64,000 nucleotides of DNA from Thermodesulfovibrio sp. Lineage in GTDB: Bacteria; Nitrospirota; Thermodesulfovibrionia; UBA6902. The number at the start of each line of letters is the position of its first letter. The stretch's first letter is position 1. Both the position numbers and the translations under genes were made by a program. The stretch is from the NCBI GenBank assembly GCA_026982355.1, contig JALSHG010000046.1:5314-69313 (forward strand). Direction: 5' to 3'. Below, piece after piece: positions 11,541 through 61,450 of the stretch. Under the pieces are notes generated by a model. The model made no database searches. It saw nothing but the letters and a program-made list of their open reading frames with translations, and had not been told where the DNA came from.

Positions 11541-11625
11541 ATGTTGCATAAACCGGCAGGAGAGTCCAACCTAAGACCACCTGACTCTCCTGCCGGCGGG
11601 CGGTGTTTTTATGCCGCTGTAAGGT
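11541..11625 (+). repeat. MITE/REP-like palindromic element, short form (copy a)
   Basis: atgTTGCATAAACCGGCAGGAGAGTCC-15 nt-GACTCTCCTGCCGGCgggcggtgTTTTTATGCcgCTGTAAGGT; a 15-bp perfect stem flanked by inverted TTGCATAA/TTATGC arms; lies in the gap between the lipoprotein gene and queD. Confidence 0.85.
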
Positions 11626-11996
11626 TATGATTCGAAATACGTTGCCGAAGCCCCCTCGTTTTCCCATACCGTAACCGAGGATATGTCGCACCTGTCCTTT
11701 CCGATCCGTTTCCTGATCGACTCGAATATCCACTTGGCGATATTTTCGGAAGAAGGATTCTTTTCGGTGAATGGAAAGACTTCATTTAAAAATGAATGAT
11801 CCAGAGAGGCGATAACCTCGTTTGTTATCTTCTTCAACTCGTGGAAGTCTATAACCATTCCGGCATCATCCAGCCTTTCCGAGGAGACCGTTACCTGCAC
11901 CCTCCAGTTATGGCCGTGCAGTTCTTCGCATTTGCCTTTATATCCCCTGAGTTGATGCGCTGCGGAAAATTGTGATTCCACCATTAGCTCGTACAT
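11625..11996 (-). CDS. queD: 6-carboxy-5,6,7,8-tetrahydropterin synthase QueD
   Basis: 123 aa; FSAAHQLRGYKGKCEELHGHNWRVQV motif of the PTPS/QueD family (CxxxHGH zinc site). Confidence 0.85.
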   Translation of the reverse strand: MYELMVESQFSAAHQLRGYKGKCEELHGHNWRVQVTVSSERLDDAGMVIDFHELKKITNEVIASLDHSFLNEVFPFTEKNPSSENIAKWIFESIRKRIGKDRCDISSVTVWENEGASATYFES

Positions 11997-12011
11997 AAAA
12001 CCTCCCGGAGA

Positions 12012-12332
12012 CTACCGACCGTCTTCAAACTTGAAAATAATTTCGCCCTCTTTCGTGAGACCGTATTCCCTGGCGAATTCCTCGATAAGGGCTGGGTCCT
12101 TTTTCAGGGTCTCTATCCTGTTCCTCATCTCTTTGTTCTGTTTTTCAATCGCCGCGGTCTCCATCAGGAGTTTATCCCTTACATCCCGGAGCTTCATGTA
12201 TCTCACGAGGCCGTTTTCCCCGATGATCAGACTGACCATCAGGTAGATGGAGAGCAGGACGGCAAATGTAACAAAGGCCAGTTGTCTCCTCTTCCTGCTC
12301 TGCTGAACCTGCCTGCGCCTTACGTTACGCAT
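12012..12332 (-). CDS. ftsB: cell division protein FtsB/DivIC (septum formation initiator)
   Basis: 106 aa; N-terminal TM helix then coiled coil (LRDVRDKLLMETAAIEKQNKEMRNRIETLKKD); the position immediately downstream of eno is conserved. Confidence 0.75.
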   Translation of the reverse strand: MRNVRRRQVQQSRKRRQLAFVTFAVLLSIYLMVSLIIGENGLVRYMKLRDVRDKLLMETAAIEKQNKEMRNRIETLKKDPALIEEFAREYGLTKEGEIIFKFEDGR

Positions 12333-12345
12333 TTAACCGGACCCC

Positions 12346-13620
12346 TCATTTCACGCTGTAAAACACGTCCCCGCCGCGGTAAACCGCGGCCGCGCCGAGT
12401 TCTTCCTCGATCCTCAGCAGCCTGTTGTATTTCGCAACCCTCTCGGATCTCGAGACGGAACCGGTTTTGATCTGCCCTGTATTCATTGCAACGGACAGGT
12501 CCGCAATCGTCGTATCCTCGGTTTCACCTGACCTGTGTGACACCACGGACGTATATCCCGCCCTTTTCGCAGTCTCCATGGTATCTATCGTCTCCGTCAG
12601 AGAGCCTATCTGGTTTAACTTGATCAGGATCGAATTGGCGATACCCCTCTCCATTCCCCTTGAGAATATCTCACGGTTCGTCACAAAAATATCGTCGCCT
12701 ACAATCTGCACCTTTCCGCCTATTCTTTCCGTCATTGCCTCCCAGCCGTCCCAGTCATTTTCAGACAGCCCGTCCTCAATGGACACCACGGGATATTTTT
12801 CTATCAGTTGCCCGTAATAATCCACCAGGTAATCCGAGCCCACCGACTTCCCTTCAAAACGGTATTTGCCCCTGTTGTAAAATTCGGATGCCGCGGCATC
12901 AAGGGCGATAAACACGTCCCTGCCCGGCTTGTACCCCGCCTTTCCGATTGCTTCCATAATCAGGACGATCGCCTCTTCATTGGATTTCAGGTCAGGGGCG
13001 AATCCCCCTTCATCGCCCACGGATATGCTGAGTCCCTTTGATTTAAGGATGGACCTGAGACTGTGGAAGACCTCCGATCCCGTCCTCAGGGCCTCGCTGA
13101 ACCGCCCGGCGCCGGCCGGCATTATCATGAATTCCTGTATATCCAGATTATTATCGGCATGTGCGCCGCCGTTGAGTATATTCATCATCGGCACTGGAAG
13201 CTCCCTTGCGCCTGCGCCGCCGATATACCTGTACAGCGGAAGCCCCGCCTCCAGCGCCGCGGCCCTTGCCACAGCGAGAGACACGCCCAGAATGGCGTTT
13301 GCCCCGAGCCTGCTCTTGTTTTCGGTCCCGTCGAGTTTAATCATGAGGTTGTCGATAAACGCCTGCTCGGCAGCCTCGATGCCAACTACCTTCGGCGCTA
13401 TCTTTTCATTTACGTTCCTTACAGCCTTGCGGACTCCCTTTCCCGAATAACGCCTGTCTTTGTCCCTCAGCTCAAGCGCCTCCCTCTGTCCCGTTGAAGC
13501 TCCCGAGGGAACGGCGGCCCTTCCGTGTGCGCCTGTCTCAAGCACGACATCGACCTCAACCGTGGGATTCCCCCTGCTGTCGAGAATCTCCCTTGCCGTG
13601 ACATCAATGATCTCACTCAT
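12346..13620 (-). CDS. eno: enolase (phosphopyruvate hydratase)
   Basis: 424 aa [25 protein letters not shown]...; full-length enolase with the catalytic SHRSGETED motif. Confidence 0.98.
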
Positions 13621-60289: not shown

Positions 60290-60366
60290 AACAAATCTTC
60301 TCCTTAAACCGGGCGCCGGCCTCCCTCATATTTCCGCCGGCCGTCCCGTCATAAATGCCGATCCGC

Positions 60367-61029
60367 TTATGCGGTCTCGCCGCCGGCCGGCTGAACCGCC
60401 GGATGCTGGAGGATATCTCCCTTGTATATCCAGACCTTGACGCCGATCCTGCCGTAGGTGGTCTTGGCCTCCGCAAGTCCGTAGTCGATGTCCGACCTGA
60501 ATGTGTGCAGGGGAACCCTTCCCTCCCTGTACCATTCCGATCTTGCTATCTCCGCGCCTGCAAGCCGTCCCGAGCACGCCACCTTGATACCGAGGGCGCC
60601 GAAACGCAGGGCGGAGGCGACCGCCTTTTTCATGGCCCTCCTGAAGGCGATTCTCTTCTCCAGTTGAAGGGCTATGTTTTCCGCAACAAGGACCGCGTCC
60701 AGCTCCGGTTTCCTGATTTCCTTGATGTCTATCGACATCTCCTTGCCTGTTATTTTTTCAAGCTCTTTTTTCAGCTTCTCAACCTCGACTCCCTTTTTGC
60801 CGATGATTATGCCGGGGCGGGCAGTGTGTATGGTCGTCCTGATTTTCTTGCCGGTTCTCTCGATTTCAACTTTGGGCACACCTGCATGAAAGAGATTCGC
60901 CTTTACGTATCTCTGAACGGCCAGGTCTTCATAAAGCTGTTCCTTGTAATTCTTTTTGGCAAACCATTTGGAATCCCATGTTCTTGTGATTCCGAGCCTG
61001 ATGCCTATCGGATGTGTCTTCTGCCCCAA
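60367..61029 (-). CDS. rpsC: 30S ribosomal protein S3
   Basis: 220 aa [24 protein letters not shown]...; KH domain; C-terminal GGETA tail. Confidence 0.97.
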
Positions 61030-61050
61030 AATCTATCCTCCGTTTTCTGT

Positions 61051-61380
61051 TTATTCCTCTAAAATCAGGGTTATATGACTCGTTCTCTTCCTGATCATGT
61101 CCGCCCTGCCCATGGCGCGCGGCATCATCCTTTTCATTGTCGGTCCCTGGTCAATGAGAATCCTTGCCACCTTCATCGATTCGGGATCCGCGACTTTCTT
61201 CTGCTCTGCGTTCGCCATGGCGGACTTCAGGACCTTCGCCAGGAGCCTGCCGCCCTTATGCGGGAGAAAGCCGAGACTTATAATGGCATCGCCGGCCTTG
61301 CGGCCCTTGATCAGGTTCGCCACCCTTCTCACCTTCCTCGGCGCTATCCTTGCGTATCTCAATACTGCTTTTGATTCCAC
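61051..61380 (-). CDS. rplV: 50S ribosomal protein L22
   Basis: 109 aa MESKAVLRYARIAPRKVRRVANLIKGRKAGDAI... Confidence 0.96.
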   Translation of the reverse strand: MESKAVLRYARIAPRKVRRVANLIKGRKAGDAIISLGFLPHKGGRLLAKVLKSAMANAEQKKVADPESMKVARILIDQGPTMKRMMPRAMGRADMIRKRTSHITLILEE

Positions 61381-61419
61381 TGTTGATTACCTCGTATTAT
61401 CCCTGCGGTTGTCCTGAAA

Positions 61420-61450
61420 TATCTCATGCCGCGCTTATGCAGCATTAACG
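61420..61450 (-). repeat. MITE-like left-arm remnant (copy o) in the rpsS-rplV spacer
   Basis: CCGcGCTTATGCAgCATTAAcgg, whose reverse complement matches TTAATGtTGCATAAGCcCGG; the spacer is 75 bp instead of the usual ~15. Confidence 0.5.

Follow-up and report, generated by a model that had tools for sequence, protein, structure and literature searches.

Small intergenic repeats of a Nitrospirota chromosome as probable miniature elements of IS1380-type origin

What kind of element are the small palindromic sequences that recur in the intergenic spacers of a 64-kb stretch of Thermodesulfovibrio sp. DNA (contig JALSHG010000046.1, positions 5,314 to 69,313), the whole of which was analysed and is hereafter called the window? 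An initial annotation listed 15 such sites and proposed a dispersed mobile family of miniature transposable elements bounded by inverted repeats (MITEs), with short and long derivatives. In this study, we report that the repeats are very probably decayed, non-coding MITE copies that arose by internal deletion from an insertion sequence (IS) of the IS1380 family. True inverted repeats, a target-site duplication, empty or differently filled sites in relatives and full-length partner elements were all found, in agreement with the mobile family proposed.

Copies, ends and target-site duplication

The inner stem CCGGCAGGAGAGTCC was matched eight times in the window with up to two mismatches, against 0.15 matches expected by chance, and the outer arm TTAATGTTGCATAA nine times against 0.45; the same repeat families were also recovered by a repeat finder. 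Left-arm (L) and right-arm (R) modules were searched with nhmmer, using profiles built from the window and its closest relatives. Significant L modules were located at 11538, 16140, 25440, 28891, 32192, 33493, 35048, 40440, 44708, 53811, 58992 and 61449, and significant R modules at 11574-11625, 17298-17341, 28805-28856, 32169-32189, 32350-32407, 40225-40283, 44623-44668 and 53719-53766, with weaker R modules at 58859-58893 and 16144-16185. These profiles supported 13 of the 15 listed sites. The site at 36033 gave a 10-nt match only (E=1.8) and is unsupported, and neither the site at 48850 nor the possible remnant suspected at 60290-60366 had an nhmmer match to the arm modules. A solo right arm at 32171-32188 is an extra piece beyond the 13 supported sites.

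The window thus holds 14 copies, one per ~4.6 kb. Both orientations were seen, as were the short (86-93 bp), long (214-216 bp), half and decayed forms already described, and no copy overlaps a credible coding sequence, as had been stated; several adjoin stop codons within 0-9 nt. The family had been called far denser than ordinary REP/BIME repeats, which overstates the case: its density in the window is high, yet only about twice that of the E. coli REP and Neisseria Correia elements. Copies measure 66-216 bp in the window and up to ~394 bp in other lineages, none with a conserved open reading frame (ORF), and the long form of about 220 bp, placed earlier in an autonomous-element/MITE pattern, is itself non-coding and not autonomous.

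A complete copy reads 5'-CCTTAAYGTTGCATAA ... TTATGCMRCTGYAAGG-3' and is bounded by terminal inverted repeats of 17-19 bp, in which CCTTAAYGTTGCATAA pairs with CCTTRCAGTTGCATAA, the reverse complement of the right end, with agreement at 14-15 of 16 positions; the ends read CC[CT]TA...TA[AG]GG. Similarity among near-identical copies in other metagenome-assembled genomes (MAGs) stops at (A)CCTTAATG... on the left and ...CTGTAAGG(T) on the right. Since near-identical copies define the ends there, the outer arms are true terminal inverted repeats. For the outer inverted arms of the initial annotation, the true ends (CCTTAATG... / ...GTAAGG) are placed 2-3 nt further out than first written. The TTAA at the start of the arm, suspected of being a target duplication, belongs to the inverted repeat, and the TAAAC noted 3' of the right arm is target duplication plus flank and no part of the element.

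The duplication itself lies outside these ends. With ends set at CC...GG, 90 complete copies, taken from the window and from loci in genomes and metagenomes, had identical 4-nt flanks in 47 cases and flanks differing by one base in 17 more. Flank lengths of 2, 3, 5 and 6 gave 4, 2, 1 and 0 matches, respectively, and permutation of the right flanks gave a mean of 12.5 and a maximum of 23 identical pairs, against the 47 observed. The duplicated tetranucleotides were TAAA (18), TTAA (11), TTTA (7), TATA (3), TTGA, TCAA, TCCA, TCTA and others, that is, TNNA.

Full-length partners and distribution in relatives

The left arm, searched for in metagenomes, was matched at 120 loci, four of which (L167, L179, L166 and L188) hold candidate full-length elements of 1.52-1.66 kb with the same repeats and one ORF of 472-482 aa each. 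The encoded proteins matched Pfam PF13701 DDE_Tnp_1_4 (E 1e-39 to 1e-48) and NCBIfam NF033539 'IS1380 family transposase' (224-250 bits, cutoff 180); the IS5, IS982 and IS4 models scored far below their cutoffs on the same proteins. At E<1e-30, homologues of the L167 protein number more than 6000, most of them on IS-length contigs, and one cluster of these is named 'IS1380 family transposase [Desulfobacterales]'. A genomic copy of the L167 element (L244) is 1541 bp long and reads TTAA|CCCTACAGTTGCATAAAAAA...TTTTATGCAATGTTAGGG|TTAA, or in short form TTAA|CCCTACAG...GTTAGGG|TTAA. The IS1380 family, known above all for ISEcp1 and the dissemination of CTX-M beta-lactamases, is characterised in ISfinder by ends starting with CC and duplications of 4-5 bp. 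A full-length partner with the same ends, which the initial annotation had suggested looking for, thus exists; it belongs to IS1380 (NF033539) and not to the IS200/IS605, IS630 or PIF/Harbinger types named there. The accompanying hint at piggyBac-like targeting came close, because IS1380 has been used as the prokaryotic outgroup of piggyBac (PMC10813416), while the IS630-like option was not borne out. Another member of the family, IS1247, is 1672 bp long with 16/13-bp repeats and a 5-bp duplication (PMC3281130).

The left arm of the MITE corresponds to the right inverted repeat (IRR) of the full-length IS and the right arm to the left one (IRL). A tblastn search placed transposase matches at 13 independent loci (52-100% aa identity). 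Each repeat detected 5' of the transposase was of the YAG type, as in the right arm of the MITE, or a degenerate form of this type, and each one detected 3' was of the AAYG type, that of the MITE left arm. Two gammaproteobacterial loci retain pieces of the gene beside a right-arm repeat, L083 having transposase codons 27-75 (71% identity) and L016 residues 90-304; these fragments are direct evidence of an origin by internal deletion. Long MITEs further share a central motif, CACC-N4-GTGAAnTCC, which corresponds to the quasi-palindromic hairpin over the transposase ribosome-binding site and GTG start, AGGAGGTCACCGCAAGTGAAGTCC.

A scan for the right-arm 18-mer in one genome per species gave at least 89 loci. 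Among the matches listed, most came from several Nitrospirota/Thermodesulfovibrionales MAGs, two Thermodesulfobacteriota and several Gammaproteobacteria MAGs (NORP100, Thiodiazotropha and others), and the remainder were chance matches in coding sequence. Within each lineage, the 18-mer terminates an element of 200-390 nt that occurs repeatedly in the genome, and many contigs stop ~140 nt into it, as is typical of a multicopy repeat. Scans of viral contigs gave only coding-sequence coincidences. A distant BLAST of a plasmid collection found no related IS and matched only a palindrome of ~50 nt (...ACATCCCTGTAAGCTCAACAGCGACATCCATGTCGCTG...) that is nested as an insertion in the NORP100 MITE (L050 ~1493-1543, also L002) and absent from the sister copy L056; L095 1501-1549 and L096 1501-1542 may be compared. 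This palindrome resembles unannotated intergenic sequence of Yersinia and Acinetobacter at 82-83% identity (E ~0.08) and may be a second widespread family of small repeats. A symmetric subfamily was also seen in the metagenomes, where MITEs of 80-190 nt (L128, L132, L142, L155, L181 and L185) carry the left-arm, IRR-type repeat at both ends and match ACCYTAAYGTTGCATAA exactly on both strands.

Relatives of the window organism provided orthologous spacers for comparison. The closest, a single MAG represented by L090 and L250, has a SecY 98% identical to that of the window and ~90.5% nucleotide identity, and the alignment breaks exactly at the elements in the L14|L24 and secY|map spacers. In L093 and L094 (SecY 85-87% identical) these two spacers measure 25-70 nt, that of secY|map in L093 being 36 nt, and the L14|L24 site of L093 is empty, ATATAA|ATTCAAT, where the window has ATATAA[CCTT...AAGG]TGAATTCAAT. 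The copy at 16134-16199 in the kdsB/thiI spacer is absent from L250 at ~90% nucleotide identity. The PTPS/He_PIG spacer is occupied by a short copy in the window and by an oppositely oriented long copy, flanked by ATTA/ATTA, in L250, and is an empty 2-nt spacer in L251; the window and L250 copies are independent insertions. Among the relatives selected by SecY, the three more distant ones (L092-L094) had no copy in ~63 kb, and L090 gave two weak right-arm matches only. Since the orthologous spacers of relatives are empty, hold another filling or cannot be aligned, conservation of the copies as 3' untranslated regions of orthologous genes, the objection that had been anticipated, does not apply. 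In L092 (SecY 89% identical), the S3|L16 and secY|map spacers are AT-rich and large (246 nt, 4317-4562, and 177 nt, 11102-11278), without a match to the MITE family, and may hold a different insertion.

Stem, orientation and competing explanations

Inside the arms lies a GC-rich stem of 14-20 bp. Stems were compared by duplex folding of each sequence, as they could not be aligned across lineages with MAFFT and RNAalifold. A stem of 14-20 bp was found at the same place in 15 of 19 lineage representatives, beginning 16-31 nt from the left end and stopping 18-30 nt from the right end, with sequences unrelated between lineages; examples are GCAGGCAGGAGAGTCCG / CGGACTCTCCTGCCCGC in the window, ACAGCAAGGACTAACATGC / GCATGTTAGTCCTTGCTGT in N1_Bin and CGGACATGGGTGAACCG / CGGTTTACCCGTGGCTG in CROMO. 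Inspection of the ends of the recovered full-length IS copies revealed no such stem. The stem may be kept because a DNA or RNA hairpin is selected for, or because the two arms evolve in concert. Four short copies of the window fold as long hairpins of -24 to -50 kcal/mol, with z-scores of -4.2 to -5.8 in three of them and of -1.1 in the fourth (44620-44712). Long copies have in addition a hypervariable centre, often of G-rich simple repeats, that includes the remnant of the transposase ribosome-binding site/GTG hairpin and is missing from short copies. Centres of the long copies in L009, L024, L068, L037 and L250 contain (GGGTTGC)n, (GGGTGCA)n and C6TC4 / G4AG6 palindromes.

Orientation was counted with roughly called ORFs, both in the window and in loci that carry the family, a copy being scored as sense where the left arm lies beside the upstream stop codon and the right arm towards the downstream start. 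In co-directional spacers, 24 copies were sense and 4 antisense (binomial p=2e-4), and 14 further copies lay between convergent and 12 between divergent genes; the window alone gave 8 sense and 1 antisense. The usual start of the left arm is 3-25 nt past the stop codon. Asymmetry is confined to positions 6-8 of the repeats and to a linker of 10-14 nt with a T5 run before the right arm. As the repeats are nearly symmetric, the transposase is an unlikely source of this bias. Read in the sense direction, the T5 run follows the main stem after 10-14 nt, and only a 5-bp mini-hairpin abuts it; in the antisense direction, the stem is followed directly by TTTATGC (UUUAUGC in RNA), with four T in eight positions. 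Our best guess from this layout is that antisense copies would be terminator-like, polar in operons and counter-selected, and that the linker of sense copies would allow read-through. A replication-linked insertion bias is an alternative source. No convincing sigma-70 or sigma-54 hexamers were noted on inspection of the right arm, and the sole promoter-like site of a promoter scan (32412-32441) is located just outside the element.

The history that accounts for these observations would begin with an IS1380-family insertion sequence that lost its interior and became a non-coding MITE. A transposase of the IS1380 type, acting in trans, would bind the MITE repeats and insert the element into AT-rich TNNA sites; in a genome of ~50% GC such sites would be found mostly at stop codons and in spacers, and insertions within genes would be removed by selection. 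Strong hairpins in transcribed copies would be a side effect. Several observations weigh against this account. The MITEs resemble the recovered IS copies only in the inverted repeats and the short start-hairpin motif, with weak similarity elsewhere in the interior, and the direct parent element was not found among those copies. No transposase gene lies in the 64-kb window, the only part of the genome at hand, and the fetched loci of MITE-rich MAGs hold transposase fragments only; repeats paired at distances of 0.7-3.5 kb in the first 94 genome loci enclose ordinary genes (metF, type VI-like genes) and no transposase, and an all-against-all BLAST of the fetched genome loci gave no multicopy ORFs. 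The window has a single perfect duplication (at 32193-32406); the flanks of 28806-28894 and 53720-53812 match at three of four bases and those of its other copies have decayed, so that the window copies appear to be mostly old. Finally, neither the 24:4 bias nor a subterminal stem that keeps its position and varies in sequence is predicted for a purely selfish element with near-symmetric ends. The bias, together with a stem whose position is shared by at least 10 lineages, would mean that selection acts on a transcribed or single-stranded form, as a hairpin used in IS1380/piggyBac-type mobilisation or through co-option of sense copies as RNA elements of operons. Co-opted sense copies could serve as non-terminating stabilisers or processing sites, and sometimes as donors of AAGG, with antisense copies being polar. 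We regard selection of this kind as unlikely.

One rival reading is that the repeats serve the host as regulatory RNA motifs, acting as intrinsic terminators, mRNA stabilisers or processing sites, and are kept for their function without being mobile DNA. The folding energies and the low z-scores of three short copies would fit such motifs, as would a small hairpin followed by TGTTTTTATG that was flagged as terminator-like, the usual position of the left arm shortly after stop codons, the orientation along transcription and the stem kept with different sequences. Regulatory motifs would hardly leave orthologous spacers empty, oppositely filled or unalignable between flanking genes of ~90% identity, however, nor would L092-L094 lack them over ~63 kb, and target duplications and transposase-bearing relatives speak for mobility. 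Sense copies lie, moreover, inside the ribosomal-protein and che operons, in which efficient termination would be lethal or have polar effects, and their T-run is 10-14 nt away from the main stem. No Rfam family corresponds to them: Rfam 15 gave no match in the window at gathering thresholds, and two long copies gave only chance-level matches at E-value thresholds. An immobile regulatory origin is thus very improbable, and exaptation of some copies is possible.

Other kinds of mobile element would also produce small palindromic repeats. Dense, intergenic palindromes recall REP/REPIN or IS200/IS605-type (PATE) sequences, moved as single strands by an HUH Y1 transposase (RAYT/TnpA) and perhaps bearing a TnpB guide-RNA scaffold, and an 18-mer shared across phyla at one end, beside a conserved internal motif, at first pointed to an omega-RNA-like right end. 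To our knowledge, HUH elements (IS200/IS605, REPIN) have neither inverted-repeat ends nor target duplications, whereas the window family has true inverted repeats and a direct 4-bp duplication; the REP-like alternative offered earlier fails because REP-type elements make no duplication. No tnpA, tnpB or RAYT gene was seen beside the long copies, which lie between ordinary genes, and the internal motif is the transposase start hairpin of an IS1380-type element. The idea of a TnpB/IscB right end or of a REPIN was therefore dropped, and single-strand mobility of this sort is scarcely credible here. Nearer to the preferred reading, the repeats might be MITEs of another DDE family with a 2-bp duplication (IS630/Tc1-mariner, IS30, IS5/IS427) and ends at ACC...GGT. 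With ends so placed, the two flanking bases are equal on both sides in 21 of 29 copies, and head-to-tail junctions with a 2-bp spacer were seen. In about 20 of 22 cases, however, the pair is preceded by T and followed by A, and the duplication is therefore TNNA of 4 bp with ends at CC...GG. Nor is the duplicated pair limited to TA, and the sole transposase found between these repeats is of the IS1380 type. A 2-bp model (IS30, IS630 or IS5/IS427) was replaced after the analysis of the 4-bp flanks and the IS1380 model scores, and is almost certainly wrong.

Set beside IS1380 itself (ISEcp1, IS1247, ISPme1), the family agrees in that full-length relatives with shared repeats pass the NCBIfam IS1380 model, are 1.5-1.66 kb long, have ~17-bp repeats starting with CC, duplicate 4 bp and occupy AT-rich targets. 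The window elements differ in being non-coding, 66-216 bp long, dependent on a transposase in trans and furnished with a long subterminal stem that full-length copies do not show. An outward promoter has been described in ISEcp1 and ISPme1 (PMC9330008). Like bacterial MITEs (Correia/NEMIS of Neisseria, ERIC of enterobacteria, RUP/SPRITE of pneumococcus), the window elements are small, non-coding, intergenic, dispersed, bounded by inverted repeats and hairpin-forming, and occur in long and short forms; they differ in their ends, in a 4-bp TNNA instead of a TA duplication, in their IS1380 parent, in being common to three phyla and in their strong orientation bias relative to transcription. REP/BIME/REPIN-RAYT repeats are likewise dense, intergenic and palindromic, often just after stop codons, with possible mRNA hairpins, but have no target duplication and an HUH Y1 enzyme, where the window family has inverted repeats, a 4-bp duplication and a DDE partner. 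The eukaryotic piggyBac elements, which target TTAA and read TTAA|CCCTAGAAAG, share a 4-bp duplication on TTAA-like sites and ends starting with CCCTA (compare L244, TTAA|CCCTACAG); the window family differs in its prokaryotic host and its relaxed TNNA target (TAAA > TTAA > TTTA). The transposases of the two are related, with IS1380 as the outgroup (PMC10813416). Bacterial MITEs may have effects on transcripts (PMC10969869), and that 2024 review of prokaryotic MITEs does not mention IS1380.

By every defining feature that could be tested, the window family is a MITE with IS1380 as parent family; the kind of element is familiar, and no description of this family was found. Literature searches gave no match to the repeat strings and nothing on MITEs in Nitrospirota. 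The analysis names, and provides a mechanism for, a repeat that occupies a large fraction of intergenic spacers in an uncultured Nitrospirota group and breaks metagenome assemblies of that group, many contigs ending inside it. It indicates that the IS1380 family spawns MITEs common to three phyla, and it adds the TNNA target and the CCCTA ends to the features that IS1380 has in common with piggyBac. With the ends known exactly, the elements can be masked and annotated; insertion polymorphisms can mark strains, and the orientation bias is a case in which selection on the polarity of MITEs inside operons can be tested.

Individual copies and their gene context

The window (GC ~50%) is ordinary chromosome, with the S10-spc-alpha ribosomal-protein operon, a chemotaxis operon, kdsB, pyrG, eno and a 2432-aa FG-GAP/PKD surface protein; it lacks tRNA and tmRNA genes. 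SecY (53817-55124) is 85-98% identical to proteins of Nitrospirota MAGs, the nearest named one being mislabelled 'Deferribacteres'. Copies lie within operons at S19|L22, L14|L24, secY|map, cheW|cheB and cheY|cheA.

On the plus strand, a short copy of 89 bp (11536-11624; L module E 8e-9, R module E 3e-14) lies between the convergent genes of an Ig-domain protein and PTPS, and its left end is degenerate (CATTGATG). A short copy of 66 bp with a decayed right arm (16134-16199, detected by nhmmer) occupies the divergent spacer of kdsB and a thiI-like gene, and the right, IRL-type half of a long copy (17261-17340; R module E 2e-13; repeat families D6 and D14) is located downstream of the latter. The thiI-like gene (16220-17248), flanked by these two copies, was considered as a captured passenger and rejected, as kdsB and thiI are divergent neighbours in L250, L251 and L252 too. 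A left arm with a remnant of the inner stem (25441-25511, L module E 3e-5) is the sole window copy antisense to co-directional genes.

The solo right arm (32171-32188, plus strand, E 3e-5) is joined through a shared 4 bp, TAAA, to the best-preserved long copy (32193-32406, plus strand, 214 bp; L module E 1e-11, R module E 2e-17), whose perfect TAAA duplication lies at 32189-32192 and 32407-32410. Right-end/left-end junctions like that at 32171-32192 also occur in L037 and L003, and these head-to-tail junctions suggest repeated insertion beside existing ends. Two further plus-strand remnants each have a left arm: 33489-33567, with a hairpin remnant just 3' of the stop of a DUF362 gene (E 1e-4), and 35047-35104, 1 nt after the stop of an inositol monophosphatase gene (E 9e-8).

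The other copies are on the minus strand. A short copy of 89 bp (28806-28894) with flanks GTAA/TTAA lies in a divergent spacer. A long copy of 216 bp (40225-40440, nhmmer) is located between a response-regulator gene and cheA, and its right end provides the AAGG of the probable cheA ribosome-binding site. The longest cheA ORF opens at an ATG inside the right arm of this MITE (40225-40241); from the sequence, the start is likely the next ATG, after an AAGGGGG whose AAGG is the MITE end, so that the overlap would concern the longest-ORF start only. Short copies of 86 bp (44624-44709, nhmmer) and 93 bp (53720-53812, nhmmer, flanks TAAA/TTAA) lie between a cheW-like gene and cheB and between secY and map, respectively. 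A decayed copy of the long type (58849-59000, nhmmer) separates rplN (L14) from rplX (L24), and a left-arm remnant (61434-61451; L module 61412-61449, E 2e-6) lies between rpsS (S19) and rplV (L22).

Three minor features of the window were also noted. A perfect (GA)29 microsatellite (48999-49056) lies in the large spacer after the gene at 46793-48736, beside the unsupported site at 48850. The spacer just upstream of secY contains at 55166-55214 a tandem 7-nt unit, TCTTGAA and variants, which was reported as a 14-nt spacing. The 2432-aa protein, encoded at 17367-25371, has FG-GAP, PKD, ASH/HYDIN-like Ig and BACON domains and is followed on the same strand by a PEP-CTERM protein of 213 aa.

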